A stretch of DNA of 63,771 nucleotides, filler included. It is 14 parts of 14 records of this genome, joined end to end, with 100 filler letters (N's around TTAATTAATTAA, not from the genome) between each part and the next. Parts side by side here need not be neighbours in the genome. Positions count along the whole stretch, not along the records: positions 26,304 to 33,295 come from SRR15195285_9366; 13 more parts are not named here. One strand, written 5' to 3'. The notes beneath the pieces are model-generated. The model was not told the DNA's origin, did not search any database, and worked only from the letters and a program-made list of their open reading frames with translations. Positions within the stretch are counted from its first letter, which is position 1; each line of letters opens with the position of its first letter. Position numbers and translations under genes: made by a program. Positions 16,863 through 56,635 of this stretch are shown here, piece by piece.

Positions 16863-18350
16863 TGCCTTCCCTGGCAGCGTGGTGTGGCAAAGCGCCTACC
16901 CTGTCATCACCTACAACACCTGGAAGGCCTACGGCGACATGCAGCTGATTAGCCGCCACTGGGATGGACTGGTGGCGCTGTCGGACTACTGGTCGCGGCA
17001 GCCTTGCGCGCAGGACCACCAGAACCTCTGCGGTGGACTGGGGGATTGGGTGGACACAAGTTGGCCGGCTCGAACCACCGATGCACAGGTGTGTGTGAAG
17101 GCCCACAGGTCGCCCTTGCTCGCCTTGTCTGCCTCACAACTTCTCCGTCCACAAGGGCCCCCCTCACTGTCTATTTGTTCAACACGCGGTGTCTGCTGCA
17201 CCAACACCACTATCGGTCGTGTTGTTGACCGTGTGGTTATTCCTTGCGCAGGCCACCTCGTCATTCTACAACAGCCTCTCGGTGGCATACATGTCCGAGA
17301 TTGCGACAGCACTCGGCAGGGATGACGAGGCTGCGAAGTACGCGGCCCAGTTCGACACTATGACCACCGCCTACTACAGCTCCTGCAAGTCCTGCACAGC
17401 CTGGGCCAGCTGCTGTGGCGCCAAGCTGGAGAACAGCTCGCAGACCGCCTCGATCATGGCTCTGGCCCTCAACCTCGCTGCACCACCACTCTCTAAAACA
17501 CGCGGCCCTATTCCGGCAGGCATGGTCGGGGCGGTGGTGGGCAGCCTGGTCGAGAGTATCGCCTTGGCTGGCAACCACACATCCTCCGGTATTGTAGGCT
17601 CTACGTTCGTGTTTGACGTGCTGGTGGCTTATGGGCGGGGCGCGGTGGCGATAGAGATGCTGCTCAAAGACGATCAGCCGAGCTTTGGCTACATGATTTC
17701 TCAGGGGGCAACGACCCTGTGGGAGAATTGGCAGGGACAGCTTCCAGGAGGCGCGGTCGGGTCCAACAACCACGTGAGCGCAAACCCACACCCGAGTCGT
17801 CTACGACAGCCACGACATCGTACTGCAGCGATGCAGCGAACTGTGTATCAGGCTGGTAGCTAATTGGCTGCGTCGTCACTACTGCGCCCAGATAATGTTC
17901 GGTGGCAATGTCGGCACGATCACGTACCACGCGTTCGCAGGGCTGGCCAATGCCGGTGTGGCGTGGCGGTCGATCCGGATGCGCCCTCTCCCAGCCGCGA
18001 TCGAGCGACTTGGCCAAGCTAATGCCTCCGTGCTGACACCAAACGGCCTGGCTGCCATCAGCTGGCGCTGGCTTGAAAAGCGCGCGCTCGTCCTGAACGC
18101 GACAGTGCCCTCGGGCTCGACAGCCAAGATCATCGTGCCCGTGACACTATTCGGCGCGAGCAAGATCTCGAGTGTCACAGAGTCTGCGACGGTCGTGTGG
18201 AGCCATGGAAAGTACGCCGCGCCACCTGCTGCGGCGGCCTTCATGGACTTCACTCACGAGGTCTCGCCGCACGAGGCCCTGGCCTTCGTTGTCGGCTCTG
18301 GCAGGTTCGTGTTCGCTGTGGCATATGATGGACCGAGTGCAGCCGTATAG
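16863..18350 (+). CDS. Alpha-L-rhamnosidase (GH78), C-terminal part, 5'-truncated; introns ~17089..17250 and ~17773..17891
   Basis: GLGDWV, SQTASIMALAL, PSFGYMISQGATTLWENW, SNNH|IMFGG, TPNGLAAISWRW...LNATVPSGSTAKIIVP. Confidence 0.88.
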
Positions 18351-23782: not shown

Positions 23783-26068
23783 CTACAACAGGTCCCGTTT
23801 GACGAAAGCCATCAGAGTGTCTGGCCGCGCGTACGGTGCAAGACAGCTCCCATCGCACTGCTGCGGGTTGAGAAAGCACTTGTACTGACCCTTTTCAAGC
23901 TCGTGCAACACAACGCTGACACAGTACGACGTCGCACAGCAACGCTTGCGGCATGCCTCAACGTCTGCCTCTCCCAACCCGCTCGCTGGAAAGCTCGCCA
24001 CAGCGGGGCCACCACCACCGGTTTTGTTGCGGACCTCCCAGCCTGGACTCCCTGCCTGTCCAACACACGGTCCAAGCGGTACTGGAGGAGATGGCGGTGA
24101 AGGTGTGGCACTGACATTCCACGGGCCCAGAAAGTTGCCTCGGGCCGCAGCAGCAGCACAGCAACCGGCGTCATCAGCCGCTGGATTGAACTTCGGCGGG
24201 TGATATGAGGTTGTCAATTCCTCAAAGCGTGCAAGCATACTCTGGAGAACAGCTGGCTCTGCAACCGACATGTCATACCGTTCCGATTCGTCTGCTGTGA
24301 GGTTGAACAGACAGTGGTCGTCGCACGCACGGCCTCCGAACGCGTTGGAAGCTGTCCCGTTTGAGAAATTAGTCCACTCTCCACCATTGGGTCCTTTCAC
24401 AAGCTTCCACTCCCCCTTAATGATCGCGCCAACCGCGTAGTCAACACCGAAGTGGTTGCACCCGGTCCCTGCAGTAGAGAAGTTGGCTAAGCAGTGGTCC
24501 AGGACAATTTCGGTGCGTACTGGCTGAATATCAGGGCGGTTGCCTGTGATGAGATCCCATTGGTTGAGGCCATCATACGGGATGGTTGCCGAGACGCTGT
24601 CGGCGAGTGGAGTCCCATGTGCATCTACCTGAATGGCGGAGATAATCGTAGGCAGCCAGTCGGACACATGAATCAGCGTCGACAACTGCTGCCCACGTCG
24701 GCCTAGTGGCAGTGCCCCACCAGCAACTATAGCAGGCACTCTGCATCCACCTTCGAAGTTTGAATTTTTTCCTAATCAACAACGTACAGATCAGTCGAAC
24801 GGTGGATCCATCGGTAGAGCATATTTGGAAGGTTAGATATGCGCACCTCCTCTAAACGGGAAGTTCGATCCACCACCACCCAGTGGCGCCCCATTGTCGT
24901 GGGTGTAAATCAAGAGAGTATTCTGGTCCGACGACAATTGTCGCGCAGTGTAGTGGGTTGGAGTTGAGGAAAAACACAGTGAGAGAAGAGCAACAGACAG
25001 TGCACATTCAACGTCGAGCAACCGTAGAGCAACGCAAATCGCACCTGCCACGTCCCTGGTCGAGCCTTCAACGCGGCTGTCAGATTCCCTACTGCTTCGT
25101 CAACGACGGACACCATGCCATTGAAGACTTCCAGCTTCTTGTTGCCTGGGAATTTGTAGAGGTCTGAGTACTGCAAGGGTACCTCGAACGGCGCGTGAGT
25201 GTTTTGCAGCCAGTAATTCAGGAAGAACGGTTCCGGAGCTTCGTTGGCGACAGCTACCGCCTTGGCATTGTACATCCAGCCGGAGTAGGTGCCGTTGTCG
25301 CCGTGTGCAGGCCGCGCATCGGACGTCAAGTCGACCACGCTGCGACATTTGATCATGCTACCGAGCTCCTGAGTGAAGTGATCCTGCATCCCACCAAGGT
25401 ATCCGAAAAAGGTATCGAAGCCTCGGCCGGTCGGCATGTAAGACTCGTTGTGAAAGCCTAAACTGTGAACACACGAGGCATGACCGGCTGTGAGAATGTG
25501 TGACTCAGAGGCAAGCATCCAACATAATTCTACAGCGTGGGCTGGGGATGTCGAACGTACTGCCACTTGCCGACATGGTGAGTGGAGTAGCCCAGACGCC
25601 CGAGGCGGAGTGGAAGAGTGTCGAACCCAAGCTCCAGACCATCCGGTCGTGACCAGGGTATGAAGTTCGACCGGGTATTGCCCGTTCGGAACGGGTACCG
25701 GCCGCTGAGAAAAGAACCCCGTGTGGGACTGCAGAACTTGTACACGTAGTGCCGCGAGAGGTACAGACCTTCGTCGCGTAGTTCGTCCACACGTGGCCCC
25801 TTCACTAACGGGTTGTTCGACTGGATCCCTCCGTGACCAAGGTCATCCTGCGTGCAGGGCCAAGATAGGCATCGAACGGGCGAGGATGGTGAACAACTGT
25901 CTACAGCAGGTAGAATGACTTTTCGGTTCTGCACACCACGAGAATCATGACGATGTTGAACTTCTTGCTGCTTGCCGCAACTGCACTCAGCTCTCCCGTC
26001 ACCACTAGCAGCCCGAGAATCAGCAGCAGTGCCGATGGCAGTGGCCGCGTCAGCCTTCCGTGCTGCAT
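23783..26068 (-). CDS. Secreted S1 sulfatase (arylsulfatase B-like) with C-terminal PAN/apple module; several introns
   Basis: Signal peptide MQHGRL...ALLLILGLLVV, FNIVMILV|DDLG, formylglycine motif CSPTRGSFLSGRYP, GYSTHHVGKW, PTGRGFDTFFGY, DNG..GGSNFPFRG|KNSNFEGG, HVSDWLPT, CRKRCCATSYCVSV. Confidence 0.9.
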
Positions 26069-26883
26069 CCAGGATCGATATCCTCGCAGCGGCTAGCAGC
26101 TGTCCAGCGCAGCGCGCAGCGGCCAGCATCGCGCGCGTGCAGCTCATGCTGCAGCTGGCTAGCCAGCAGCTATGGCAACCACAATGTGATTCCTGGGTCG
26201 GCGNNNNNNNNNNNNNNNNNNNNNNNNNNNNNNNNNNNNNNNNNNNNTTAATTAATTAANNNNNNNNNNNNNNNNNNNNNNNNNNNNNNNNNNNNNNNNN
26301 NNNGAAGTCTCAGATTATGGGGAACGCACAGTAGTACCGAGTACTAGTACAATCCATTCAGTCGCTGACCGCGGGGTGACTGAAGATTTTCGAAGCACTC
26401 GATCACCGACGGTCAGCATTTTAGTACATTACGGAATTGGGATACTGTACTCGTAGCCGTCTGTAACCAAAACAGTGTGATTGTCCGACTGTCAGAATTG
26501 TCACCCGGTTTGGATTTTTGCCACATCACTGAAGGCGATTGAGTGAGGTCATCATCGGCACGTTCGTGATTCGACACATCCCGGTGCGTACGGTACTATG
26601 TTATACGTGTATTATATATACTGAACTGCAATGTATTGCCATTCTGGCGTTCGATTCGGCTGCCAGTGCCGGCGGCTCTTCGCATTCGCCCAGCCACGCG
26701 GGCGCGCCGGCGCGCGGCCGGCCGCCGCTAGCGCGGCCGCCGCACGCGACGCGATGCATTCTCACAAGCACATCGATCCGGCGGCATAACGCGAGTCGTG
26801 GGAGTCATCGCGCCACCAGACGCACTGACAGGCTGGACGTGGGCGTACATTGCGACTCTACGTGCTCGGCTGGAGGAGCTAGG

Positions 26884-29800
26884 ATGTCAACAGAGGGCGG
26901 CAGTGATTCTACTGTGAAGTTCCTTGTGCTAAAGTTCGGCGGCACTTCCGTCAGCACTGCAGAGAACTGGAAGCGCATCGCCGCGATCATCAAATCGCGC
27001 GTCGCCGCCGGAGGGGACAACCTCAAAATCGTGGTGGTCCATTCTGCGCTGAGCGGCGTGACAGACAAGTTACAACTCTGCCTTGAACAAGTCCTCGAGC
27101 GACGGCGGTCAAGTGACACTGGAAATGGCCCGCACGACGCACAGCAGCCGGCTGGAACACACAAGCGCACGCTGGCGGCCATCATGGCACAACACCTGGA
27201 GCTGTCCAAGGCCCTGGGCATGCCGGAAGCCGAAGCACAAGTCATGTTGGCTCCTTACCACCAGGAGCTGCAGCGCATACTTGAGGGCGCAAGCCTCATT
27301 GGAGAAGTCTCGAGTCGCACCAAGGCTCGTGTCGTCGCAATGGGCGAGCTGCTCTCCACGACGATCGGAGCGGCTGCACTCAGCACAATGCTGCCCGACG
27401 GTATGTCTTGTTGGCTTGAGGCGCGGGAACTTTTGCGATGTGCCAAGGTCTCAACGAGCGTACGACTGCCGGAGGAGCAAACGTACTTGAGTGCCGCTTG
27501 CGACTATGATCCTGATACCGAGCTGCAGATACGGCTTGCGACCGATTCGTCTAGGGTGTTTGTGACGCAAGGCTTCATCGCATCCAATCAAGATGGGGAC
27601 ACCGTGCTGCTCGGGCGTGGCGGCTCTGACACGTCTGCAGCCTACTTCGCAGCAAAGCTCGAGGCATCGTACCTGGAAATCTGGACAGACGTCCCCGGGA
27701 TGTTTACTGCCAACCCTCGGCTCATCCCGGAGGCCAAGCTGCTGTGCACTCTCTCATTCTCAGAAGCGCAGGAGCTCGCGTCGACTGGTGCAAAAATTCT
27801 TCATCCACGCTGTATCGGTCCAGCTGTGAGTGTTCTTCCTTGCACTTTCGTTCCATACAGGTATACCATAAACTGATCAATCGTGTGGATATGGTAATGC
27901 TCAACGTGTTCTGCGTCAGGCTAAACACAACATCCCCATCAAAATTTGCGACACGTTTCGGCCACATCTACAAGGTACTGTGATCACGGCAACCTCAAGA
28001 GATAGTGGCGTCGTCAAAGCAATCTCTGTGCGGCATGGAATAACAATTGTCAATCTGGAGTCACTTGGCATGTGGCAGCAGGCTGGTTTCCTGGCAGATG
28101 CTTTCCGTGCGTTCAAGGCTCAGTCTATCTCTGTTGACTTAGTCGCGACGTCCGAGTCGACAGTAACGGCCTCTATAGACCCGGAGACGATTACCGAGGT
28201 GTGTACATCCTCACGTGCACGCTCTTGCACATCAAGAGAACATTGCAGACATATACCACGAGCGTGCGAGCAAACGCAGCGATGAAATTGTTGAATGCTT
28301 ACTCTGACTTGAAGGTTGCCTACACCATATTTGCAGGGTGCTTTAGACCGCGTCTCTAGCGACCTTGCCGACATGTGCTCAGTGAGCTTCACACACAACT
28401 GTGCATCGATATCTTTGGTTGGGCAGCAGATTCGAGCCACACTCCCATCTCTGGCCCCTGCTCTCTTGGCTTTCCGACGACACAAGGTCCACATGCTGAC
28501 ACAAGCCGCAAATGACCTAAACCTCACATTTGTGGTGGATAATGCGGTGGCTGACGATATTGCTATCGAGTTGCACCATAACTTGATCGAGCAACCGCCA
28601 GCAGAGGTTACGACCATGTGTACTTACGGAATGACTTGGAGTAATCTCAGCTCACCGAACTCATCCCCGCCCAACACCCCAAGGCAAAGCAGCTCCGAGG
28701 ACGTTCACACCGGAGACGTTGAGGATCAAGCGACACAAGATCCTTCTGCTTCTGCAGACACTGTAATGCGTGTAGGGTTTGTAGGGTGGAGAGGAATGGT
28801 TGGCAGCGTTCTACTGGAACGGATGGCAGAAGAGGGCGACTTTGACGGCACCTTCGAGCCGGTGTTCTTCACCACATCTCAGGTGGGCCAGCCAGGTCCA
28901 GTGGTTGGCACAGGTGGGCGGCACAAATCGTGCCCGTTGGTCGACGCAACTGACCTGGAAGCGTTGTCCGGCTGTGCAACGATCGTCAGCTGCCAGGGAG
29001 GCAGCTACACGGAATCCGTTCATCCAAAGTTACGCTCTACTGGCTGGAACGGCTACTGGATTGATGCTGCCTCGACATTGCGAACCCACGACAATGCCGT
29101 AATCGTGCTGGATCCGGTGAACGGACGCGTGATCGACGATGCGCTGGCAGGGGGAAAGATTCGCGATTTTGTTGGTGGAAATTGCACAGTCTCTCTGATG
29201 CTAATGGCACTGGGAGGCCTATTTGAGGCTGGCATCGTCGAGTGGGTCTCATCCATGACGTACCAATCCGCATCTGGAGCTGGAGCAAGACACATGAAGG
29301 AGCTACTGGAGCAAATGCGCCACCTCGGCAAGTTTGTCGATACTGCTGAGGAGCAGAACTGGTCAGCCCTTGAGCTAGAGCATGCTGTGCATGCCTGCAT
29401 GCGTACTACAGGGGAGGATGGAGACAGTGCTGGCGAGATCCCTTTCCCTGCCACAAATTTTGGGGCGCCGCTTGCGTGTTCGCTGCTCCCGTTCATCGAT
29501 AAACCGATGGAAGATGGGACGGGGCGATCCAAGGAAGAGTGGAAGGGAATGTTCGAGACAAACAAGATTCTCGGCCGAGGCTTAGCAGGAGCAGACGGTG
29601 ATGCTTCACAGCCGCAAATCCCAGTGGATGGTGCATGTGTCCGAGTTGGCGCGCTCCGTTGCCACTCCCAAGTAAGAATGCCCTACCCCCTTCGCCCGGC
29701 GACCCAGCCTCCCCCAGCGTCACCATATGGATGCAAGTGTCACCATACACATGCAATCGAATTCTGGTGACTTTTCTTTGAAAGCATATCAAGTACAGCA

Positions 29801-30139
29801 CATACTTATTGTGTTTGCACTTTCACTGCCGGCTTGCTTTGCCCGCAGGCGATCACTCTGAAGCTCAAGTCGCCTGTCACCCTGGATGAGGTCGAGCGAC
29901 TGATCCGCAACCACAACGAATGGGTTGACTTTGTTCCGAACACAAAGGAGGACACGCTGCAGCGCCTCACACCGTGCGCAGTTGCAGGAGGGCTGACGGT
30001 CGCGGTTGGGCGAGTCCGGCGGATGGCAATTGGGGATGAGTACCTCACGGTGTTTACAGTTGGTGACCAGCTGCTTTGGGGAGCTGCAGAACCGGTGCGC
30101 CGAGCACTTCGGATTGTGCTGGGCCACGCACGCAAGTGA
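26884..30139 (+). CDS. Bifunctional aspartokinase (with ACT domains) :: aspartate-semialdehyde dehydrogenase fusion, 948 aa; introns 27826..27919, 28199..28336, 29672..29848
   Basis: AK motifs: [55 protein letters not shown]. Asd motifs from 28766: [68 protein letters not shown]. The junction lies inside one stop-free exon. Confidence 0.93.
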
Positions 30140-30502
30140 CAGTGACATGACAGAACCTCAGCGGCAACGCTGATGACAAAGAGTGGAACCTGAGATCTCG
30201 TGCTAGGACATTCAACACACTGTTCGGTGAAAATGTACTACAGCGTTCACGTAAGCGCCAACTGAGCAAAGGCGACCGGTGATGCTAGGCACTCTTCGCC
30301 ATCGTTAGCACGAGTACCTGAGGTAGCGTTTCTGATGGTTTGTGCCTTGTCCCTATCTAACCGTGTGAACTAATGCATACATTCTTTGGGTTTATGATAG
30401 AGGGCACACTGTTTCATTGAGCATCTTGCGCGAGCTCTTGCAAAGACAACGCAAATTGAATAGTCCCAGACTCTAAACAATGCAGGAGCCATAATTTTAT
30501 CA

Positions 30503-32550
30503 CTAGCGACCGTGTGCGACCCTGGTGTTTGCGCCAGTCGCGAACACCTCAACCAGCACCGCATCGTGCGGCTGCAGTGTCGACTCCAAAGCTAGTGTAC
30601 TAGAAGAAATGGGGTTAGCGTCCCGCCAAAGTGCCCGAGACTCAGCTGGAGGACCTTTCAGCCCGAGAGCTGACCATGGGGCTTTGACTACCGTCGCAGA
30701 GTCTCCTAGATTGAACATCGCCACGATCCTCGCATCTGCACGTTTCGAGCTTTGTGCAGCCCACACCACGCTCTCATTGGTGGATACTGATGCTAATAGG
30801 TGGTTGCGGCAGGTAGTCTCTTGTACTTCTAGTGCAGCTTGATCAGAGAGTAGTTCGAGCGTGCTGGCGTTTGAGCGAGTCGGATCGCCCCCCCAGATCA
30901 ACGGAGCCCTTGATATGATCCACATTGTCATCATCGCCCGTTGTTCTTGCACAGTAAGAGTTGAATATCGTGGACCAGTGCCAACGTGTGCAATCCATCC
31001 CATCGGCAACATGTCCTACGCAGCAGCGCCCACATATTTTCAGGGCAATTGCGTTTGGCCGAAGGGAGCCCCGAATTGCAATTCTACTATTCAAAAAAGC
31101 GCCGATGACAACGGGAACAGACACGGTGGGCTCAGATGGATCCCATTGTCCAGTCTGAACTTGGGGCAGCAGACACGTCGCACCAGGTCCGGGGAGAAGA
31201 GCCGCGTACTGTACTGCTCAAGCTCAGCTGCATACGCAAAGTGAGCCTTCAGCTGACCCCACACGTCCCAAAAATCACCAGTCAGCCTTGCCATGATTGG
31301 TTGGCCCAGGCTGCTGGCCATGTCCCGGGCCGCCGCTGCCAGTGTTGCATTCGGTTGTGATGAGCCGGGAGAAAGTGAGATCACTATCGGACGATGCCGC
31401 TTCTGCAACGCTTCGATTAGTCGTCTTACGAAGGTCTCTCCTCGGAACCAATCCTGCATTGAGCGGTGCACCCAGTTAGATGAGGACGGTCCATGCGTTT
31501 CAAAACTGGTTCGATTGGTCATGCCAGAACTTCTGTTTGGTCCATTGGCAGATCGCACCTGACCGAAAACGCAGTCAACTTTCAAAAAGTCAAGCTTCCA
31601 CTCGGTTGCATACAGATCGGCCAGAGAATCGATATACTCCTGTGCGCCTGGGTGGCTCATATTTATCCCGTGTACCTGCCACAAACAAGTCCACCAGAAA
31701 CTATAAGGGGCTATTTGCTGCATAGGGTAGGCACATGCATAGTCGACAGTGAGCCTACGAGCCAAGGGTTCCACGGGCAGTCCATTGAGCCGGTTGCTTT
31801 CCCTTTGTGTGGTGGCTGGCTCGGATCATCCCCAACGATGGCAATGTCCGCAGCCGTGAAGTTTGAGCCCTTGATTTTGCTCTTGGCTTCCACAGCCATT
31901 CGTGGCACACCACCCATGATCCAGATCCCAAACTTCAGGCCGTGCGCGTGAATCTTTGCGCCCAAAGGCGCAAACCCAACGCCGCCGGCACTCGATGGAA
32001 ATTGCGTGACATTTGGCGTGAGACGACCGAAGTCGTCGATGGTCTGCGTGCCGTACCTTAGTGCAAACCACAACCAGTTCAAACAGCACACTACCACCAC
32101 CACCCCGATTCCCCAACAAATACACTACGCAGAAATCGCATCGACAATTACTGCTGTGTTTGGTCTGCTGCTACTGCTGGGATGCACATACTTGTTGTCT
32201 TCACCGAACCATCCACTGTCCAGAGTGAATGTGTCGTAACCGCGAGGCAGCAGCGTGGAGGCCAGCTGGGCGGCGTCGCGCAGCGCAACAGCTTCTGTTG
32301 AGGCCTCCGTGCTTCCGTCGGGACCGGTCCACGGAGGCGACGAGTCATAGCTGTTCCATCCACGTGGGGGTGCACGGAGCTCTGACGGTGTGCACAGCGT
32401 GCCGAAGCCTGTGGGTTGCGCCGCGCCGGCTGACGCTGTCAGCAGCTGATTTCCGCGCATTAAGCCCGCCAGCAGCAGTAGAGACATGGGACTGTTGCGC
32501 CGCAGATGCCTTGCCCGGTACAATGCCGGTGTGGTGCCACTAGCAGCCAT
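30503..32550 (-). CDS. Alpha-galactosidase (GH27), secreted, multi-exon (start at 32550 or 32487)
   Basis: PPRGWNSYDS, FTLDSGW, DDFGRLTPN..FPSS, IHAHGLKFGIWIM, DFLKVDC, IVISLSPG, RLTGDFWD, PDL|DMLPMG, MTMWIISRAPLIWGGD, VAMFNL. Confidence 0.88.
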
Positions 32551-32624
32551 CGTGTCGCACTGACAGACCGCGTCCGGTCGCACTCGCTGCCAGCTTGACG
32601 CGGCCGCCGCTAGCGCGTCGTCGG

Positions 32625-32654
32625 GCGCGCGCGCGCGCAAGCGCGCGCGCGCGC
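32625..32654. promoter_or_regulatory. (GC)n tract in the divergent promoter between GH27 and SLC35A
   Basis: gcgcgcgcgcgcgc-aa-gcgcgcgcgcgcgc between head-to-head ATGs (32550/32487 and 32692); similar tracts precede many other genes. Confidence 0.5.
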
Positions 32655-32691
32655 GTCGCCGCGCCGGGTCGAGTGCCTCCACGATCTAGCG

Positions 32692-33295
32692 ATGGGCGCT
32701 GGGGCAGAGCGGCTGCCTGCAGCGCAGCGGACGATGTTGGTGTGTGCAGCTGCGGTCTGTATCGCGAGCAGCGGTCTGCTGGTGAAGGCGTCACAGGTGG
32801 GCGGTATGACACCGTACAGCAAGTTCTCAGTCACTGTAGTTACTCCGCTGAATGTCCTCTTGCTTGGGCAGTGATCAGTTCTGCATATTCGTTACTGTTT
32901 GAACTGCTGCTCAAGTTTTTTTTTGTTTTCGTCGGAGCAGGTACTCGCAGAATCACTCAAGCTCAGTATCGCTGGCACTCTGTGGTTGCGGGAGATTCGC
33001 AAACAGCGCCACTCCGGCACGCCTGCTTCGCCATCGCTCGAGGCGCGCGACGCTGCAACGTTCACAGTGCCTGCTGTTCTCTACGTTATCGTGAACAACA
33101 TCCGCTATCCGATCCTCGAGCGCATCAATCCGGCTGTCTATTCTGTGGTGTGGAATCTCAAAGTCATCGGTGTAGCGGGACTGTTGTCGTGCGTGCTCGG
33201 ACGGCCAATCTCGCGACGACAATGGTGTGGAGTGCTCCTGCTGATGTTCGGTTCGTCTCTTGCGGAAGTCTCTCAGTGGAATGCAGCCGCAGAGC
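32692..33295 (+). CDS. Nucleotide-sugar transporter (SLC35A, UDP-Gal/CMP-Sia family), 3'-truncated
   Basis: SVT|VLAESLKLSI, FTVPAVLYVIVNNI, PAVYSVVWNLKVIGVAGL...LGRPISRRQWCGVLLL. Confidence 0.85.
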
Positions 33296-33395: not shown

Positions 33396-36300
33396 CGCTC
33401 TCACCTGCGCCTGCGGAAGAAGGCCATTTTGGTGGTGCCGTACGTTAGTATCGTGCGCGAGAAAGCGAAGTGGCTTGACCGTGTGCTGGGGTCGCACGGG
33501 ATACGTGTGCAAGAGTTTCACGGAATCACCGGCGGTGACATGGACAAGGCAGACATGGCAGTCTGCACGATGGAAAAAGCGAATGCCTTAGTGAACCGGC
33601 TCATGGCTGAAGGGCAGATGAATCAGATTGGCATCGTCGTCGTTGACGAACTGCACATGCTTGGCGACCAGTACCGAGGGTACTTGCTGGAGCTGCTAAT
33701 GACAAAAGTGAAATACGTCGGTCGCCATGATGAGATTCAGTTTGTTGGGATGAGTGCTACGCTGCCGAACATACAGGAAGTCGCGGACTGGATGGGGGCG
33801 GCGCTGCACGAGTCTAACTTTCGGCCAGTGCCGCTCGACGAGTACATCAAGTGCGGAACAAGAATCTTCCAGCACATCGGCGGCGGTGTGACTGTCCATC
33901 GGGCTGACCTGCCCGAAGCCCATCCCTCGGACAGAGATCATGTCGTTGCTCTATGTGTTGAAACGCTAAACGACGACAACAGCGTGCTTGTTTTCGTCGC
34001 CAGCAAAAAAGGTTGTGTGTCCACAGCACAGATGATTAGCAAGGTACTACCTCAGGTAAATCCGAACCCGCACTACGAGACAGACCCGAAGCACCTTGCA
34101 CTGCAGCAGAGGCGACTGGAGCTGGTCGACTCATTGAAACGCACGCCTGGCGGTTTGTGTCCTGTGCTCGAAAAGACGGTCCCTCACGGCGTTGCGTATC
34201 ACAACGCTGGGTTAACTGTCGAAGAGCGTGATGCGATTGAGTCTGGCTTCAGGGAAGGCATCATTCGAATCCTGACTGCAACGTCGACTCTCGCTGCAGG
34301 CGTCAACTTGCCTGCGCGCCGAGTCATCTTTCGTTCTCCATATATTGGGATTGAATTTCTTGATTCGACACGATACCGCCAGATGTGCGGTCGCGCGGGC
34401 CGGGCAGGCATTGATACTCGCGGGGAGTCATTCATCATTTGTGAAAACAAAGACTCCGTGAAGATAAACAACCTGCTCGTGGAGCCGGTGAGGGAGCTTA
34501 AGTCCTGCCTCAAAGAGGCGCCGAGTCCAGAGCATGGCGGAGCTCCCGTCACGAATGATGACAAGCGAGGTGTAGGGCTCGAGCGAGCAGTTCTCGAGGT
34601 CATCTCTGCTGGGGCTGTTACCACGGGTGATGAGGTTGAGCTGTGGCTGAAGTGCACCCTGCTCGCGCACCAGAATCCTTATCCGGATGTGCATCACAAC
34701 TGCAAGTGCGCACTGGAGTACCTTGGACGGCAAAACTTTGTATCGTATGAAAGGCTGACAAACAGCTTTTACGCCACTGGTCTGGGTCTCGCGACGTTTC
34801 AGTCGTCACTGCCGCCACGAGATGCCTACCGCGTAGCGGAGGATCTGCTTCAGGCACGAAAGCACTTCATTCTTGAATCGGATCTGCACCTGCTCTATCA
34901 GGTAACACCTGTGTCAGGCAACCCGCCTCTCAGCCAAAGCGTTTGGGAGGCGTATCCAGACCATCTAAATTCCCTCACAGAGTGTGACCGACAGGTTGCT
35001 AGCCACATCGGCATTGAAGAGCAGGTGGTCCGTCGGATTGCACGTCGGCCGCCCAAATTTGGTGCACCGGAAACAGAGGAGATTCTGCGATACAAGCGTT
35101 TCTTTGCGTCAATGATGCTGTCGTGGTTGGTCCAAGAGAAACCGGTTGACTGGGTTGCTGATCGGTATGAAGTGCCACGTGGTGCTCTACAGAACCTCAT
35201 GAGTGCTGCAGCAACGTTTGCCAATCTAGTGTCGAACTTCTGCCAGCAACTCAAATGGTGGGATTTGGAAGTCCTTACAGGCTCGTTCGCGAAGCGGCTA
35301 AATCATGGGTGCCAAGTGGACGTGTTACCTTTATGTGAAATCCCGGGGGTACAAGGCACACGAGCACGGGCGCTGTACAAAGCAGGTCTACGATCAGTCG
35401 CAGCAGTGGCAATGGAAAGCATAGAGAATATTGTAAAGGCCATTACAGCCGACCAAGCCTTCAAGCTGAGAAGCGGTCGGCGTGCATCGGAGGAGCGTCA
35501 AAAGAAATTGACGGAACGACAGAAGAGCGTGGACCTGGCTGCAGCTGTAAAAATTCAGGAGGGCGCAAAAAGTATCATCATGGCGCAGGCCGCTGAACTT
35601 ACGAAGCAATCAGTATATCTTCTCGGAGAAATGGACCCCACAACTAGTGTAGAGGAAACAGCTGGCTCGGCATCTAAAGCACAAGCAACAGCTCCACTCG
35701 CGGCCACGCTAAGTTCCGCAAGAACTGGGGACCCGCACATGCCCGTCGACCATGTGGGTGCTCAAGCTAGCGGTATAAGTGCTGCTGCCGATGCCACCGG
35801 CGAGTGTGTTGACTTCTCGGACATCGTTCGGTGTGGTGATCCTGACAATGAATGCATATGCGTGAAGGTGAAGGGGGACCAGGATTGTGAAAAGCTAATG
35901 CAGACAATGGAAACGGAAAGGCAAAAACGATTTTCTTGGTCGATCGTGCAAGGGTCGCGTCGTGCTGCGGCATTCACTGAAAATGGGCGTGGTGTGGACA
36001 ACAAAGGCGGTGCAGAGGTGAAATCCAGCAGCGTCGTTATTCATGGAATATGCCTGTGTTGGACGGACAAGAAGGTCTATTACGCTGACTGCATTGGCAA
36101 TTCTCAGCTTTGTCTGTGCCTACTCGATTACATCTGCAGCAGCCCATGCCAAAAAATTGCTTACTGCATGAAGTCTGCCTTGCACGCCATTGCGGCTGTG
36201 AGGGGTAATCATCGGCTCAATGGCACACCCATGGATCCGCAGATGGCAGCATGGATGATTGATCCAGATGCCGGAATTTCCAAGCTCGATATGAAGAAGC

Positions 36301-37943
36301 TGCTGAAAAAGTATGGGCTCCCCGCCGCATCAATGACACTTAATCGATGGGTGAACGCGGCTCTGGAGGCTACCTCCGCGTTGGCTCTTATGCAGAAGCT
36401 GGACGCCTTGCTAGAGCAGCGGAACTTGCGGCGGCAGTTTATTCACGGCATGATGCCCACGGTCGCAGTTTGGGTGGATATGGAACTTGCCGGTATTGGA
36501 TTCGATACCCGGCGCTCCCGTCAGCACGAGCAGCAAATTGTGGAGCGCACTGCTGGTTTGGAGCGCATGGCTCATAAGTTAGCAGGTAAGTCATTTGACT
36601 TGAGCTCGCCAAAACAGGTTGCGCAAGTCCTATACCAGCGGTTGGAACTTGAGCCAGACCCGAGGCAAAAAGTCAAAGAGGGAAAGTTGCCAACCACCAA
36701 TGCTGAAGCTCTTGAATACATGATGGAGCACTCGCCTCACCCCATCTTGGAGGTGATTACAAATCATCGGCAGCTGAGCAAGCTTCTAACGTCTTTCATC
36801 AGGCCATTACAACTCCACGCTGAACTCAACAAGACTGTCCAATCTGCTGGACTAGGTGATCGCATCCACCCGAACGTGTTGATGTTTGCAGTACCCACCG
36901 GCCGCATAGCCATGGACGACAACACTAACCTGCAGTGCATTCCGAACCCAAAAGAGCTCAAGCTCACAACACTGCCAGCACCAGAGGCAGATCAGAGTCT
37001 TGCCGATGCCGATGAGGCTGTGATTGAGAATTTCGACATAGCACTTCGTGAGACATTCGTCGCAAGTGAGGGCTGTGTGCTGCTGAGCGCAGACTACTCC
37101 CAGGTCGAACTGCGGCTGATGGCACACGTCTCTGGAGATGAAGAGCTGATTGCGGCTTTCAAGTCTGGTGACGACGTCTTCAAACAGATGGCTGCTCGGT
37201 GGGAGGAGTGTGATGTCAGCGAGGTCAGCTCCGACGCACGCAGCCGTGCCAAGACCTTGTGCTACGGCGTGTTGTACGGCGCAGGCAAAGCCACGCTTGG
37301 TAAAAATCTTGGAATGGACGAAGCAGAAGCAGAGCGACACAAGACAAGCTTGCTTAGTAAGTACCCTCGCGTGAGAGAATTTCACCGAATTGTCGAGTCC
37401 CAGTGCAAGCAGCGTGGATACATTGAAACCCTGGGCGGCCGGCGGCGTGATTTTCCTGCCATCGATTCGCGTAATGCTAATGCTGCAGCCGCTGCCATCC
37501 GCACGGCAGTGAACACCATCTGCCAAGGCAGTGCCGCCGACCTGATCAATGCTGCTATGCTGAAGATCTACCGCCATTTCTGTCACACAGATGAAGCCTA
37601 CACTGCCACCTGCACCACCCACGCCAGTGAGAACGAAGTCGGCAGCGGAAATTCTGGCGTTTCTGCCGCAACAATCGGTACGAATTCGCAGCTTAGTGCA
37701 TCTGGCGAGTCTTCAGCAACAGCAAGCAAGGCAACGGGTGCTGTGAGAATCGTGAACCAAGTGCATGACGAGCTGATGCTAGAGCTGCCAGAACACATGC
37801 TGGAAGAAGTAGCGGTGTTCGTTAAGTGCGCAATGGAAAGTGCAGATGATGACGTAACAGCACTGCGCGTGCCGCTCAAGGCCAACCTCAAATTTGGGAA
37901 GAACTGGGCAGCGCTGCGGGACTATATCAGCGCAAATGCCTAA
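33396..37943 (+). CDS. POLQ: DNA polymerase theta (SF2 helicase + family A polymerase), 5'-truncated, no intron in 4.5 kb
   Basis: VVVDELHML, VGMSATLPN, GVAYHNAGL, ATSTLAAGVNLPARRV, QMCGRAGRAG; polymerase motifs LSADYSQVELR, RSRAKTLCYGVLYG, QGSAADL, NQVHDEL. Confidence 0.95.
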   Translation, partial: RSHLRLRKKAILVVPYVSIVREKAKWLDRVLGSHGIRVQEFHGITGGDMDKADMAVCTMEKANALVNRLMAEGQMNQIGIVVVDELHMLGDQYRGYLLELLMTKVKYVGRHDEIQFVGMSATLPNIQEVADWMGAALHESNFRPVPLDEYIKCGTRIFQHIGGGVTVHRADLPEAHPSDRDHVVALCVETLNDDNSVLVFVASKKGCVSTAQMISKVLPQVNPNPHYETDPKHLALQQRRLELVDSLKRTPGGLCPVLEKTVPHGVAYHNAGLTVEERDAIESGFREGIIRILTATSTLAAGVNLPARRVIFRSPYIGIEFLDSTRYRQMCGRAGRAGIDTRGESFIICENKDSVKINNLLVEPVRELKSCLKEAPSPEHGGAPVTNDDKRGVGLERAVLEVISAGAVTTGDEVELWLKCTLLAHQNPYPDVHHNCKCALEYLGRQNFVSYERLTNSFYATGLGLATFQSSLPPRDAYRVAEDLLQARKHFILESDLHLLYQVTPVSGNPPLSQSVWEAYPDHLNSLTECDRQVASHIGIEEQVVRRIARRPPKFGAPETEEILRYKRFFASMMLSWLVQEKPVDWVADRYEVPRGALQNLMSAAATFANLVSNFCQQLKWWDLEVLTGSFAKRLNHGCQVDVLPLCEIPGVQGTRARALYKAGLRSVAAVAMESIENIVKAITADQAFKLRSGRRASEERQKKLTERQKSVDLAAAVKIQEGAKSIIMAQAAELTKQSVYLLGEMDPTTSVEETAGSASKAQATAPLAATLSSARTGDPHMPVDHVGAQASGISAAADATGECVDFSDIVRCGDPDNECICVKVKGDQDCEKLMQTMETERQKRFSWSIVQGSRRAAAFTENGRGVDNKGGAEVKSSSVVIHGICLCWTDKKVYYADCIGNSQLCLCLLDYICSSPCQKIAYCMKSALHAIAAVRGNHRLNGTPMDPQMAAWMIDPDAGISKLDMKKLLKKYGLPAASMTLNRWVNAALEATSALALMQKLDALLEQRNLRRQFIHGMMPTVAVWVDMELAGIGFDTRRSRQHEQQIVERTAGLERMAHKLAGKSFDLSSPKQVAQVLYQRLELEPDPRQKVKEGKLPTTNAEALEYMMEHSPHPILEVITNHRQLSKLLTSFIRPLQLHAELNKTVQSAGLGDRIHPNVLMFAVPTGRIAMDDNTNLQCIPNPKELKLTTLPAPEADQSLADADEAVIENFDIALRETFVASEGCVLLSADYSQVELRLMAHVSGDEELIAAFKSGDDVFKQMAARWEECDVSEVSSDARSRAKTLCYGVLYGAGKATLGKNLGMDEAEAERHKTSLLSKYPRVREFHRIVESQCKQRGYIETLGGRRRDFPAIDSRNANAAAAAIRTAVNTICQGSAADLINAAMLKIYRHFCHTDEAYTATCTTHASENEVGSGNSGVSAATIGTNSQLSASGESSATASKATGAVRIVNQVHDELMLELPEHMLEEVAVFVKCAMESADDDVTALRVPLKANLKFGKNWAALRDYISANA

Positions 37944-47929: not shown

Positions 47930-50900
47930 CTACGCATATGGACACCCGCAGTCTGGCAGCACTTGCGGGAATGTTCCTGGTTTGCATACATTTCGAGAAG
48001 CAGGAGCAGGATAGCCGAAACTTTGTACGTTTGTGATCGTCACGTTGTACGTCATGTTCTGTCCGTCCATGCCAATTTTGCACGGCTGGCAGGATGGTTG
48101 GAAGAACTCCCACTTGTGGGTCACCGCGGATTGGACATGACACTTGCGAGTTGCCGTGTTGGCCTTGAAGTATGAGTAGACCCCGTTGATAGTAGACTCG
48201 TTGGAAAAGTATCCAGGCGGCATGCCTGCAGTGCCCTTCTTTGCACTCGCGAAGCCTGCGCCAATATCAGCGGTAGTCTCGCAGCCATAGCCATACAAAT
48301 CACGAAGGTGAAAAGCACCATTCTTCTGTGTGTGTGGCCCACTCATGAATGCTGCTTTCCCATCACGGCAGGTGATGTTGCGACCTGTGATGTTGCCCAC
48401 AAAGCGACCAGCGCCCTTTGCACCCGTCTCTGCCCTGAGAGTGACGCCCCCACTGCCGTCAAGATTCTCGAAGTCGATGTAATTGCCAGTCTGCATTTGC
48501 AGCAAACCGTACCCTGGCCAACCTCCGCTGGATGTTATGTTGGAGATCGTGCCATGCGAAGGGCCGCATGTGTGGTCTACAGCGCCAGAATCAAGACACA
48601 GCGCTGACAAGGTGCCTGCACACGGCAGCTTTTCGGCGCTGGTGATATTGTTGGCCAGCAAGACATTGACGTTAGATATGTGGAATAAATTGATGCAGCC
48701 GACCTGAATGCCCCGCACACGCCACGGACACCTAAGAGGCTTTGAGACGTCCATCAAGACGGGCTGTCCAGCTGGGGCAACGATTGAGATGTTGGTGGCA
48801 GAGGTTGCCAACTCTGGATCCCCATCGACGGCAATCAGCCCTGAACGAACAGCAGGCGCGGGAAACAGCACCACGTCTGCGGCGAACTTCCACACCACGT
48901 GTGATGTCGACAACACAACGTCGGCAATCATATAGCGCCCGGCAGGGATGCGGACACAGCCACCTGCTGCACCCAGCTTGTGCTGACAAGTCGCAAATGC
49001 AGTGCTGTCATCATGGTCGCCGTCCCCGTCTGCGCCGCAGTCTGCCTGCAAGTCCAGGCACGCATCCGAGCCACCACCGACGTGTACTAGAGTTGAAGCA
49101 CTATCAGCTGGTGGGATCCAGCTTAGAGAGTATAGACCGATGGCTAGCGAGCCAGGGCCATTCTTCTTGGAGCTGCGAAGCAGATGACAGCACATTAGCG
49201 AAAACAAGAACCGATACTACTTGGCACTATTCACTAGGAAGGAAGTGCGTCTCTCATAACCGTAGTATTCGAACATTCGTACTCACGTTGAGTGCCGAGC
49301 GATGAAATATCGCACAGTCGCAGCGTCACCTGGGACTCCCTCGTAGACGGGGGTAGGCTCTGCAAGAGCATCGCGTGAATCAATCGGCCAGTTAATCACG
49401 AACTGATTGTTGATACGGGATGATATCTTGCAGCTACCGAGTCACACACTCACCACCAGGTGCCGGTCCGTCGTCAGACTTGTTCTGCCAGTTAAGCGCA
49501 CCTGCGTAGGTCCAATTCAAGGCGTGTGGGTCGGTCTTAAGGTCGATGACGAAGTGAGGTGCAGGTCCTTGGGGCATCCCTGGCTTGCCGAATACCTTGC
49601 CGTGAAAGGCACACCAGATGTGCAGCTCGTCGACTCCCAGTGGACCGCGGAAGAACTCGCAATTTTCGTAGCCGTCCGGGTCCCATCCGGGCTGTGGTGG
49701 GAATAGTGGGTTGTTTGGTGCCTCACTGTAGGGTGGTGTCCACGAAGTAGGACTGTGTGGGAGGTAGAGACCTTCAGTGGCCGTGTTGAAGCTCGACACG
49801 CCCTTCGTCCAGTAGCCCTTTTGCCCACCCACGACCATTGCCCTGCCGGAGTCGAGTCGTCGTGCGTTCCAGCCGCCCGTCCAATTGGAAGCTGGGTCAC
49901 TCGTTGGGGTGGCAACAGCAGGAAATAGCCTCTGCCAGGGGCCGTCCGGCGACTTGGCAGAGGCAACAGCCTGAGCGCAAGTTTGCATGCTGCTTTGATT
50001 CGCACCGGAGGCGGAGTAAAACAGGTACCAAAGCTTTTCTTCGTCGCTGTAGATCGCTGAGGAAGAGAAGGTTCCACTATAGTCCCAGGCCTTTGGATCA
50101 CTTGAATGAGGGAGCGCAAGGCCATGTGATTCCCATGGCCCCAGGATCTCGGGCGCACTGTAGTGGTAGAGGTAGGCATCCCAGCCGGGCTTCGTCGAGC
50201 CATTCATGTGGTCCACCCAGAAATGCCAACGCTTGGTGACGGGGTCTTGGACCGCCGCACTCGGGTCGCGCAAGTTGCCGTGAGGATCGAACGCTATGGT
50301 TTTGACAAAGTTGAGCGTAGGGACCCAGTACTTGGAGGGTGGGGGTGGTACGGGGGCAGGACCCGCGGGCACCATGCCGGACGTGCAGTTGGGCCGCCCG
50401 CCTAAGTATTTACCGGCTTTGGCGCTCTTGAGCCAGCACATCTTCTGACCCTGGTATGCTCCCCCCGGTTGGTACATCGTGAACACAAAATGACCACAGC
50501 GTGGGTTGGCGCAGCAGGCTGCCGCGCAGTCGCTTGCAGTCGTGCCAATCATCTCACCTACATCTTTGCCGTTCTCAAAATTCTTTCCGTGGAGGTAAGT
50601 CGTACCTTGCAGGCACGTGCTTGGGGACGGCGAGGGTGGCGACAGGGCGGAAAGCGTCGCCATCTCCGCAGACGTGAGCTCGAACGAGAACACATCTAGG
50701 TCCTCTGTGATGTACTCCGGCTTGTGGGCGGCTGTCACTGCGCTGATGTTTTGCTGGATCAGCCAGCGAAAGGCCACCTGCGCAGCAGAGACCTTGTGCA
50801 CCTTGCCGATGGCGATCACCTCGGGAATATCTAGCACGCTGCTGTTGCTCCAGAGGCCTTGTAAGGGGCTGTACGCACTGTACGCAATCCCATGAGACTG

Positions 50901-51578
50901 GCAGAACTGCACTGTGGCGTCGTCCCCGCCGCCGCGAGTGTTATTCGTGTTGGCGACGGCGTGGTCACACTGGTTTACGGCTGGCACGATCTTAACTCGT
51001 GGGTCCGCTAGCATCGCTTCCAACAACGCTGAGTCAAAATTCGAGACGCCGATGGCCTTGGTAAGTCCTGCTGCCAGGCCAGCCTCAAGCTGCAGCCAGC
51101 GCAAGATGGTGAGCTCGGTGCCGTCAGCAGTCTCAGTGGACCGGCACGGCTCGTGCATAAGTGTCAGGTCCGTCCACGGCAGCTGCAGCAGGGCGTTGTT
51201 GCGTTCCATGCAGTCCTGCGCGTGAGCGCAGGCCATCTCCGGCTTCCTGCTGGTGGCAGCGCACGGCAGCTTCGTTGTGACGAAGATATCTGCGCGTGGG
51301 ATCTCCGGGTGGTCCTTGATCGCGGCCGCAATCTGCTCGTTGATCTGGTCCGTGTATCCGAGCGCCGTGTCCAGGCCCCGACCACCCTGGCGCAGAAACT
51401 CGGAGTAGTTGCTGTAGTGATTGCCCGCGCGCACGGCCTGTGAGGTGCCTCCGCAATTGATGTACGGCATCTGCGCGCCCGTATTGAGGCGGATGGTCGT
51501 CTTGTCCGCGCGGGAGGCGGTGGCATCTCCTGCGCCTGCCATCGCCACTACCACCAGTACGCGCAGGCTGTTCACCAT
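47930..51578 (-). CDS. Secreted polyprotein, 1146 aa: signal peptide - aldo-keto reductase - PAN/apple - GH117/GH43-like beta-propeller - GH82 iota-carrageenase-like beta-helix; introns 49360..49453 and 49173..49286
   Basis: Exons 51578..49454, 49359..49287 and 49172..47930 sum to 3441 nt in one frame; both donors are GTGAGT and both acceptors GCAG. AKR tetrad LDTALGY / TTKL / LMHEP and AIGVSNF; CAAACCANPRC...CWLK; RDPSA, AWDYSGTFSS, WYLFYSA; GYGLLQ, GGVTLRAETG, CRDGKAAFMSGPHTQKNG. Confidence 0.82.
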
Positions 51579-51617
51579 ACGGTTGGATCGGTCGCGTCAG
51601 GAACAAGAACTTTTCGG

Positions 51618-51657: not shown

Positions 51658-52071
51658 AGCGAAGCGCGCCCACGGCGCCACAATGTACGTATGAGGTGCA
51701 CCACCTCGCGCTGAGCGCGCGCGCCGCAGGCGGCGCTACATGCATACTATGAATAGTATGTACAGTACTATAAGCGCGCGCGCCAGCTTGCATGTCCACG
51801 AGTGCTATTATATACTATCGAATATTTGAATTGTATACAGAGGTGAGGCTCGGGTGCAGACCTGCACGCTGCAGACCCGGAAAGGCCTACTGTAGGGGAA
51901 AGCGGCGCCGGCGGAGTACGTATTCGAATAGTCAGTACGCAAATTCAGTAATAATTCACCAGCTGGCACGGNNNNNNNNNNNNNNNNNNNNNNNNNNNNN
52001 NNNNNNNNNNNNNNNTTAATTAATTAANNNNNNNNNNNNNNNNNNNNNNNNNNNNNNNNNNNNNNNNNNNN

Positions 52072-55000: not shown

Positions 55001-56635
55001 GCACGCTTCGACACCACGATGTTCCAGGTGCACCATTTCAAAACGATGCGCCCAGAGCATTAAGTTGTAGAAACGCTTCAATGTTTCGTGAGAACACGTC
55101 ACATCGATGCTAGGAATCTCCACCGAAGCCTCGCAGTCAGCGCCTTCTGTTCTTTCTTTCCTCCCTTTGGTTCCGCCTGCAAAGCTGCCTTCATTATTAG
55201 TGCTGAACGTTAGCCGGCTTCTCATGCGCTCTGCGGTTGGATCCGTGTCGAGTGAGATTTGTGCGACAAGTCTTTGTGGTCCTATCAAGTACTTCATAGA
55301 CGCCGTCTGCGGTGAAGGTGCTGCCGGAGCAATTGCAGACAACATCTTCTCTCGCCATTCCTGACTTCCTGGCGACTCGTACGGGGGTTCAGGGTTGCAG
55401 TACGCAGCGAATCCAGAATGCTGCGACGATCCATCAGCAAACGCTTGCAACTGCTTCCCCAGCTCGATTCTCTTGTTTGCGAATCTCTGCTCCTCCTTTA
55501 CCGACACAGGCTGCGTAGCGCCTGTCAGCATATCCACAAGAAAGCTGGTCACTTCAAGCCGATCTAGGGTAATTCCTGCCGCAAACATTGTCGACGAGTC
55601 AGCAGCGGCCCAGGATACCCTTCGGGACGAAATATCATCTTCGAACCGCAGGTGCACGTTTTCGATCGTCACCTCGATGTTCTCCATGATTTTCTTCCGC
55701 ATACCGTCCATCTTCTCATCATCGTCTGGGTGGTCTTCCTCCACATTGGACTCACCCGCTGCCTTCCACGCAGCCTCGTGCTTATCCAACTTCGCCTTCT
55801 GCTGAGCCACACGGTCAGTCTGAGGGTTTATCTTCATTGTAGCCACGATGCCGCGGATATGAATGACGACTGGTCTCGATCTGAGGTGCTTGAAAGGGAT
55901 CTCTATGCGGATTCTGTCAACGTGCGACGCAACCAGCTCGATTGGCAGGCCCAGCGAGTCAAATGCATGGGGCAGGAGTTGAAGGTCAGTCAACTCGACG
56001 ATGCCTTGCAGCACATCGATCTCCAAGTTGTCTTTGTCCAGACCCGCGATGTAGCCGCCGAGGATTTGATTGATATGCTTGACGATTTTTTTTTCTATCG
56101 GATTGCCCATTCGATTGGCAAGCTTCGCCCCCAACCCTCGCTTGTGGACAGGTTTTGAGGCATCGCTTGCAAGAGCTTTAGGTGGTTGGGATCCATCATT
56201 TAGCATGAAGCTCAGCACGAGTTTGCCGCTCGCCGTCGTCACCATTCTCTCGTGGTGACGGCGCGAGCTGCGTGCCTGCACGAGCTCGTAATCGGTCCTC
56301 GTACTGGGTTTCTGCCACTCACTGGCAGGCACCCTGATTTCGCCAAGTAAATCGTTCCTGCCCACCAAATCGTAGTCAAAGACCTGGCAGATCAGGTTTC
56401 CACCTGAGTGCGCTGGGCTTGGCAGTTCGAGGTGCAGATTGGTGTCCCATACGGGATTCAACGTCTCGGAACGATGGCTTGTCTCCTGCCGTCGCTTCTC
56501 CGAGCCCTCGAAAAAGATCCGGACAAACGGATCGCTCGATTTCCCATGGTCTGCTGCGCGCAGCCCTTCCGCCTGGTGCACGGTCACCGCAAGCATCTTC
56601 TTCGCAGCAGCGTCCGCCCACCACTGTCTCGTCAC
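52072..56635 (-). CDS. VPS13: VPS13-like lipid transfer protein with a C2 domain before Chorein_N and an internal EF-hand pair; 3'-truncated at (EP)n
   Basis: C2: VTVHQAEGLRAADHGKSSDPFV...TLNPVW...VFDYDLVGRNDLLG. Chorein_N: ILGGYIAGLDKDNLEIDVLQGIVELTDLQL...LPI...IEIPF. Also IENVHLRFED, WWQFAI, LVVDFG, and EF loop DSDEDGVLSKSE. Confidence 0.85.

Follow-up and report, generated by a model that had tools for sequence, protein, structure and literature searches.

The window analysed here, a stretch of DNA of 63,771 nucleotides (nt), carries at positions 26884-30139 (+) a gene in which an aspartokinase (AK) is fused to an aspartate-semialdehyde dehydrogenase (Asd). The fusion gene is real: all statements on the sequence made in a preliminary description of this DNA were reproduced. 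It is very probably a single picozoan nuclear gene, whose product of 948 amino acids (aa) would be a bifunctional aspartokinase-Asd with its two halves joined by a flexible tether. This form of bifunctional aspartokinase appears to be undescribed as a natural enzyme. To our knowledge, aspartokinase occurs fused to homoserine dehydrogenase (HSDH) and to diaminopimelate (DAP) decarboxylase, and not to Asd, whose substrate is the unstable product of the kinase.

Gene structure

The gene consists of four exons encoding 314, 93, 445 and 96 aa, with a single terminal stop. The start ATG at 26884 is the first ATG within its stop-to-stop frame. All three introns (94, 138 and 177 nt) have GT-AG borders and lie between codons; translation of the four exons confirmed the three phase-0 introns and the 948 aa proposed earlier. 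Exon 1 (26884-27825, +; aa 1-314) encodes the catalytic domain of aspartokinase with KFGGTS (26932-26949, +; aa 17-22) and GRGGSD (27613-27630, +; aa 244-249), which we take to be the functional nucleotide/aspartate-binding motifs of this enzyme. Intron 1 (27826-27919, +; GTGAGT...CAG) is followed by exon 2 (27920-28198, +; aa 315-407), which completes the kinase domain and encodes the first of two probable ACT domains, and intron 2 (28199-28336, +; GTGTGT...CAG) by the second ACT domain in the first part of exon 3 (28337-28594, +; aa 408-493). The protein has no N-terminal presequence, the kinase domain beginning at residue 12.

The junction between the kinase and Asd lies inside exon 3. The 445 codons of this exon cover, in this order, the second ACT domain, a stretch of low complexity and, from the Met at 28766 onwards, residues 1-302 of Asd. 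The ACT region thus continues into Asd within one exon without a stop, as had been claimed. Downstream of the ACT domain follows YGMTWSNL (28625-28648, +), which fits the pattern [FY]G.[TS]W..L and is located past the end of monofunctional lysC, and then the linker (28649-28765, +), a low-complexity segment with 9 Ser, 5 Pro and 5 Asp. The preliminary description correctly noted a Ser/Pro/Asp-rich linker, for which it gave about 45 aa; we obtained 39 aa when counting from YGMTWSNL and about 57 aa from the end of the lysC-type model.

The second part of exon 3 (28766-29671, +) encodes the NAD(P)-binding domain of Asd, with GWRGMVGS at its start, and most of the catalytic/dimerisation domain. 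It includes GGNC with the Cys (29174-29185, +) and, as the last residues of the exon, RCHSQ with the His (ending at 29671, +). The motifs of both halves are therefore intact, as previously stated. Intron 3 (29672-29848, +; GTAAGA...CAG) has a length that is a multiple of three and contains a stop. Exon 4 (29849-30139, +) adds the C-terminal 96 aa of Asd and the stop codon.

Support for the splice joins comes from colinearity and conservation in related metagenomic protein clusters, and not from RNA. An intronless open reading frame (ORF) of about 830 aa in cluster P0005 is colinear across both the exon 1/2 and the exon 2/3 joins, and the ORF of P0133 is colinear across the join at intron 2. 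P0274 and P0275 turn into non-coding read-through directly after IGPA, which is the site of intron 1, while P0104 breaks off after RCHSQ (RCHSQ/VRT), the site of intron 3. In P0409, which is 90% identical to the window over exon 3, the flanks of intron 3 are conserved and the stretch between them is unrelated to the intron of the window. The intron 3 of P0409 is in frame and without a stop, and was translated through as protein by gene callers.

Identity of the kinase half

Profile searches (Pfam, NCBIfam) were run on each exon translation separately, and the resulting domain assignments far exceed what chance would give. Exon 1 alone matched PF00696 AA_kinase with 133.9 bits (cut-off 24.9; E 9.8e-39) and TIGR00657 asp_kinases with 210.1 bits, above the cut-off of 208.7. 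It also matched solved aspartokinases, e.g. 3c1m and 2j0w. The ACT_9 match on exon 2 (25.9 bits, E 8.6e-06) is below the cut-off of 27 for that piece alone because intron 2 splits the ACT region. Full-length aspartokinase models align through both ACT domains, namely PRK08961 over positions 283-480 (283-371 on exon 2, from 378 on exon 3) and lysC over positions 270-451 (for PRK09084, 370-451 of 452 on exon 3). The relatives P0005 and P0276 carry a precomputed PF22468 annotation.

The three pieces of the kinase half scored 309, 104.8 and 98.3 bits against PRK08961 (NF006515), the family of AK/DAP decarboxylases (lysAC), with E 6e-92 for its aspartokinase part; scores against lysC were 186.8, 69.7 and 40.6 bits. 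The match to PRK08961 continues for about 22 residues beyond the end of the lysC model and takes in the motif [FY]G.[TS]W..L. This motif was found in all four fused relatives, in all 14 aligned bacterial lysAC sequences and in the tail of P0276. Following the motif, the bacterial proteins pass into the decarboxylase and the picozoan proteins into the linker and Asd. The nearest named bacterial matches to the kinase are partial lysAC proteins with 46-51% identity (Steroidobacteraceae, Woeseiaceae and other Gammaproteobacteria).

The protein lacks PF02784 and PF00278, and its piece scores sum to about 512 bits, compared to the 802 bits required for NF006515. Judged from these profiles, the kinase half is related to the kinase of AK/DAP decarboxylases, and the protein itself is no member of that family. 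Neither is it an AK-HSDH, as PF03447 and PF00742 are absent from all four exon translations. Two bacterial kinases without decarboxylase were observed: P0379, an aspartokinase of 514 aa that ends soon after its FGPTW motif, and P0305, a Rhodocaloribacter kinase of 498 aa, which belongs to the same clade and lacks the motif. Kinases of the lysAC type hence occur in unfused form as well.

Identity of the Asd half

On exon 3, Semialdhyde_dh (E 1.7e-20) and Semialdhyde_dhC (E 2e-21) were detected, with the remaining part of Semialdhyde_dhC on exon 4 (PF02774, positions 110-184). The model TIGR01745 (asd_gamma) aligned over positions 1-275 to exon 3 (360.2 bits, E 1.1e-107) and over positions 276-365 to exon 4 (126.7 bits, E 1e-36). 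Neither exon passes the cut-off of 402.9 bits alone, but the rough sum of 487 bits exceeds it. NF005144 was matched by exon 3 alone with 378.9 bits (cut-off 198). Comparison of the Asd half to structures of Escherichia coli Asd (1t4b, 1brm/1gl3) yielded 315 bits.

All residues aligned to Arg102, Cys135, Gln162, Glu241, Arg267 and His274 of E. coli Asd (1t4b) are identical in the window; we take these six residues to form the active site of the enzyme. Families of the ArgB or ArgC type were absent from the NCBIfam matches considered, which were all 11 and all 4 for the two pieces of Asd and, for exon 1, the best 25 out of 27. By its profile and residue matches, the C-terminal half is a complete Asd of the gamma-proteobacterial (E. 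coli) type.

Conservation in Picozoa

Protein searches drew on a word index, took in up to 8000 candidates and covered the best 150 matches. Five further metagenomic protein clusters, with identities of 47-90%, reach across the same junction. Apart from P0409, these are P0104 (72-76% identical, 8 members), P0005 (53% identical, 12 members, mostly single ORFs of about 830 aa with kinase, ACT, linker and Asd), P0133 (47-52% identical) and P0276 (69% over 103 aa), which stops in the linker just past the motif. P0409, P0104, P0005 and P0133 all pass from ACT via a linker into Asd. The linkers of the relatives differ in sequence and are 40-53 aa long in the four that were measured, and the flanking domains align well. 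The frame is kept through linkers of varying length and sequence, a sign that read-through is under selection.

The first residue of Asd is Met only in the window and in P0409. It is R in the P0104 cluster (8/8), K in the P0005 cluster (12/12) and L in P0133. Without a start Met in these three lineages, Asd cannot be produced there other than within the fusion protein.

In EukProt, one sequence of the P0005 cluster bears the name Picozoa sp. COSAG06. A sequence of the P0274 cluster, with 87% identity to exon 1 of the window, is listed there as Picomonas judraskeda COSAG03. For exon 1, eight further relatives were found at 58-89% identity, with bacterial proteins only from 51% down. The closest bacterial proteins are about 50% identical to the kinase and 59-61% identical to Asd. 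On the basis of these identities, the gene is assigned to the nuclear genome of a picozoan closely related to Picomonas judraskeda, and the alignments indicate that the fusion is conserved across divergent picozoan lineages. The picozoan source, this conservation and the AK/DAP-decarboxylase type of the kinase had all escaped the preliminary description.

Proposed function

The N-terminal half would act as an allosteric aspartokinase, converting aspartate and ATP to beta-aspartyl phosphate, which the C-terminal Asd of the same polypeptide would reduce with NADPH to aspartate semialdehyde. The tether of about 40 aa is expected to be flexible. Both parent enzymes are dimers, and a tether of such length would, as a structural consideration, allow both dimer interfaces to form. 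The presumed advantage lies in a fixed 1:1 co-expression and in the proximity of the two active sites. The two ACT domains probably confer feedback by an end product, with lysine as a first guess for the effector because of the kinship with lysAC and lysC. As there is no presequence, the protein is probably cytosolic, in keeping with an organism that lacks plastids. The enzyme may serve lysine synthesis via DAP, since the kinase is of the lysAC type, and possibly also the synthesis of threonine and methionine.

RNA evidence and alternative interpretations

The stretch with the AK-Asd gene is present in metagenome runs of 13 studies and in six RNA-library runs. The comparison took in the contigs of four RNA libraries, which stem from three studies and include one oligo-dT preparation. 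These contigs cover many exon parts in a patchy manner, and all three contigs of the oligo-dT library are exonic. One contig (X14 rec 4) spans 28594-28796, leading from ACT through the linker into the first 31 nt of Asd.

Several results weigh against a single bifunctional enzyme encoded by one spliced gene. No spliced joint was present in the contigs of the four RNA libraries, whose cover is fragmentary. Intron 3 is still present in the contigs X14 rec 6 and X15 rec 12, and a third contig (X14 rec 2) extends 36 nt into intron 1. These libraries may therefore contain DNA or pre-mRNA, which makes the bridging contig weak evidence for one mRNA. The RNA check across the junction thus gave a mixed outcome, with a contig bridging the two halves on the one hand and retained introns on the other. 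An AlphaFold2 model of exon 3 from a 6-row alignment had a mean predicted local distance difference test (pLDDT) score of 48, which is too poor to use; as the entire model is poor, its low confidence at residues 87-141 is not readable as disorder. A single origin of the Asd halves is weakly supported: the initial FastTree kept the Asd of the COSAG06 type apart from that of the window, and an IQ-TREE of 55 rows placed the five eukaryote-like halves in one group with a value of 60 in the Shimodaira-Hasegawa-like approximate likelihood ratio test (SH-aLRT). Finally, a variable, low-complexity linker argues against a structured tunnel between the active sites. As the linker is not conserved, such a channel is unlikely; channelling of the intermediate, which the preliminary description had put forward, finds no support here, and the tether would provide proximity at most, together with a fixed stoichiometry.

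Three other explanations were weighed against the bifunctional enzyme. The product of the one gene might be a polyprotein that is cut in the linker after translation, resulting in two separate enzymes in equal amounts. The linker is long, Ser/Pro-rich and poorly conserved, hence the type of segment that is accessible to proteases, and yeast Arg5,6 is known to be processed into a separate kinase and reductase. However, the five linkers do not share any cleavage motif, and processing of Arg5,6 is tied to mitochondrial import, whereas the AK-Asd protein has no presequence. We regard cleavage as improbable. Less probable still is that the locus yields two products, with an internal promoter or start at the Met at 28766 giving a stand-alone Asd and the upstream part a stand-alone aspartokinase. 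The ATG of the window is placed exactly at the start position of bacterial Asd, and with RNA contigs as fragmentary as these a single transcript is not proven. Yet none of the five lineages has a stop between the halves, three of them start Asd with R, K or L instead of Met, the frame is maintained through linkers that differ in length and sequence, and the contig from an RNA library crosses 28594-28796.

An artefact, be it bacterial contamination, a chimeric assembly of two bacterial genes or a decaying pseudogene, has hardly any chance of being the explanation. Such an origin would account for two halves of bacterial type in a window composed of separate contigs joined by N spacers. It is at odds with the three GT-AG introns, which are located where homology breaks, and with a second multi-exon eukaryotic gene on the same ungapped 7-kb contig. 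The occurrence in metagenomes of 13 studies also speaks against it, as do the low identities to the closest bacterial proteins given above and the divergent relatives, which retain the open frame and all motifs. A bifunctional AK-Asd encoded by one picozoan gene is thus the interpretation that we favour.

Origin of the two halves

In a FastTree phylogeny with one long outgroup, the eight eukaryote-like kinase halves cluster together, outside the starred clade of all 75 bacterial sequences. Among 80 bacterial lysAC loci, 23 have asd directly downstream on the same strand; its predicted start overlaps the stop of lysAC or is no more than about 20 nt away. All 23 belong to a Steroidobacteraceae-like clade and keep a stop between the genes. 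From this arrangement, the bacterial lysAC-asd pair looks like a translationally coupled operon. The loci are L081-L097, L116, L119, L121, L122, L140 and L141, mostly titled Steroidobacteraceae or metagenome-assembled genomes of Gammaproteobacteria.

We considered and rejected the idea that the fusion arose when such a lysAC-asd operon lost its decarboxylase module through a deletion: the picozoan Asd does not group with operon-linked asd, and the kinase falls outside the sampled bacterial lysAC. In view of the trees and of the unfused kinase P0379, a replacement of modules is therefore not demonstrated. On the origin, our conclusion is limited to a bacterial type for both halves and to the lysAC lineage for the kinase. 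In bacteria, this lineage carries DAP decarboxylase at the same C-terminal position. As both halves are of bacterial type, the gene was probably acquired by an old horizontal transfer, followed by intron gain. In the choanoflagellate Salpingoeca rosetta, lysAC and asd are listed as separate candidate transfers in the consulted part of PMC7971027, hence such genes occur in other heterotrophic marine protists.

A more far-reaching proposal is put forward only tentatively, and we consider it rather doubtful. It holds that the fusion is Picozoa-wide and arose from an acquired lysAC-type kinase that lost or never gained the decarboxylase and received Asd at the same attachment point. The gene would then be the first natural counterpart of P5CS and Arg5,6 in the aspartate pathway, with an improved hand-over of beta-aspartyl phosphate, and a signature of the lineage.

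Comparison with known systems

The closest known system is lysAC (NF006515/PRK08961) of bacteria of the Xanthomonadales, Steroidobacteraceae and Woeseiaceae type. The picozoan protein shares with it the type of kinase and ACT domains, the post-ACT motif and a second enzyme at the same C-terminal point. It differs in that the attached enzyme is Asd, which catalyses step 2 of the pathway, and not DAP decarboxylase, with which lysine synthesis ends; an Orn/DAP decarboxylase domain is absent. The tree also places the kinases of Picozoa outside, not within, the 75 sampled bacterial sequences.

Like ThrA, MetL and the AK-HSDH of plants (NF006959, NF007003), the protein combines an aspartokinase with ACT domains and a C-terminal NAD(P)-dependent dehydrogenase of the same pathway. 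Those enzymes join steps 1 and 3 and skip Asd, whereas AK-Asd joins steps 1 and 2, has no HSDH domain and scores lower against these families (189.6 bits).

Fungal Arg5,6 consists of acetylglutamate kinase and N-acetyl-gamma-glutamyl-phosphate reductase, and P5CS of plants and animals of glutamate 5-kinase and gamma-glutamyl-phosphate reductase. As in these two enzymes, a kinase of the amino-acid-kinase fold forms one protein with the reductase for which its labile acyl phosphate is the substrate, and the order of Pfam families (AA_kinase, then Semialdhyde_dh and Semialdhyde_dhC) is the same as in Arg5,6. Substrates and pathway are different, however, and the profile scores identify the two halves as aspartokinase and Asd. 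Unlike Arg5,6, which undergoes mitochondrial import and cleavage, AK-Asd has no presequence.

Operons of the lysC-asd or ask-asd type are known from Corynebacterium, Mycobacterium and Staphylococcus. Both these operons and the lysAC-asd pair of Steroidobacteraceae-like bacteria have the same order, kinase then Asd, and co-expression in common with the fusion. The polypeptides of these systems are separate, with a stop between the genes in 23 of 23 lysAC-asd loci, and the Asd of the window does not group with the asd linked to lysAC.

Direct hand-over of beta-aspartyl phosphate from the kinase to Asd was reportedly studied by James and Viola in 2002 with separate and engineered enzymes. A natural AK-Asd fusion would provide a direct test case for this step. 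It also completes a pattern, kinase-reductase fusions being already present in the proline and arginine pathways. Picozoa are a plastid-lacking sister group of red algae. These heterotrophic organisms thus retain a bacterial-type and presumably cytosolic entry into the aspartate pathway, and AK-Asd may serve as a marker of the lineage in metagenomes.

Rarity of the fusion

The preliminary description considered the architecture rare, and the protein searches agree with this. Of the proteins of 780-2225 aa that have words in common with exon 3, 99 matched at E <= 0.001, of which only the P0005 cluster combines AA_kinase, ACT and Asd; the rest are lysAC matches on the ACT part and three odd run-ons. 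When proteins of 457-1455 aa were compared to the Asd part of P0005, 23 passed, and AA_kinase was present only in P0005 and in the frameshifted bacterial P0008. In a full HMMER pass over 1.84 billion representatives, the only junction-spanning matches among the best 150 were P0104 and P0133. P0203 is a frameshifted bacterial lysAC-asd contig with extra sequence ahead of its Asd part. P0008 and P0203 were considered as triple fusions of aspartokinase, DAP decarboxylase and Asd and rejected, being frameshift-laden contigs of the bacterial operon.

A search of the ESM Atlas with P0005, covering clusters of at least 50 members, gave AK-HSDH as the nearest clusters (0.76-0.78) and none with Asd. 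In a scan of metagenome DNA with exon 3, the best 80 loci were all bacterial asd, with no fused locus among them. The only one of these with an adjacent aspartokinase, L009:486-2869, has asd followed about 50 nt downstream by a kinase that is 38% identical to that of the window; the gene order is the reverse of that in the fusion and the contig ends within the kinase. At locus L008, leuB is followed by asd.

A natural AK-Asd fusion was not found in the literature searched, and it is not mentioned in the consulted parts of PMC1885841, PMC8599508 (Picozoa genome), PMC12803844 (polyamine), PMC7971027 and a 2026 single-cell preprint. According to the part consulted of PMC1885841, on the proteobacterial Common Pathway, the Asd of proteobacteria is a monofunctional enzyme, and the fusion partner of ask is hom or lysA. 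The fusion goes unnoticed because of the labels assigned automatically to such proteins, which are 'aspartate kinase', 'diaminopimelate decarboxylase/aspartate kinase' or 'aspartate-semialdehyde dehydrogenase'.

Genomic context

The window consists of at least 14 pieces. Thirteen spacers are located within 5170-60420 (e.g. at 26204-26303), each composed of 44 N, TTAATTAATTAA and 44 N; the spacer sequence has stops in all frames. Physical linkage of genes on different pieces is not shown. The piece with the AK-Asd gene (26304-33295) is ungapped and of even GC content along its length. The second gene on this piece, at 30503-32685 (-), is a multi-exon alpha-galactosidase (melibiase)-like gene with Melibiase_C at 30506-31015, arranged tail-to-tail with AK-Asd.

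No Rfam match was obtained on the window. Genes on other pieces include a long single ORF similar to DNA polymerase theta at 33396-37940 (+), with DEAD/Helicase_C, a POLQ helical domain, DUF7898 and DNA_pol_A. A further ORF at 52019-56671 (-) combines a C2 domain, a VPS13-like N-terminal region and a pair of EF-hands, and on a separate piece the ORF at 49437-51596 (-) encodes an aldo/keto reductase and then a PAN domain. Genes for glycan degradation with a bacterial-type alpha-L-rhamnosidase domain, sulfatase and GH43 are located at 17099-17860 (+), 23786-26201 (-) and 57132-58397 (+). They are in line with the 2026 single-cell preprint, in the consulted part of which Picozoa are described as enriched in polysaccharide-degrading domains.

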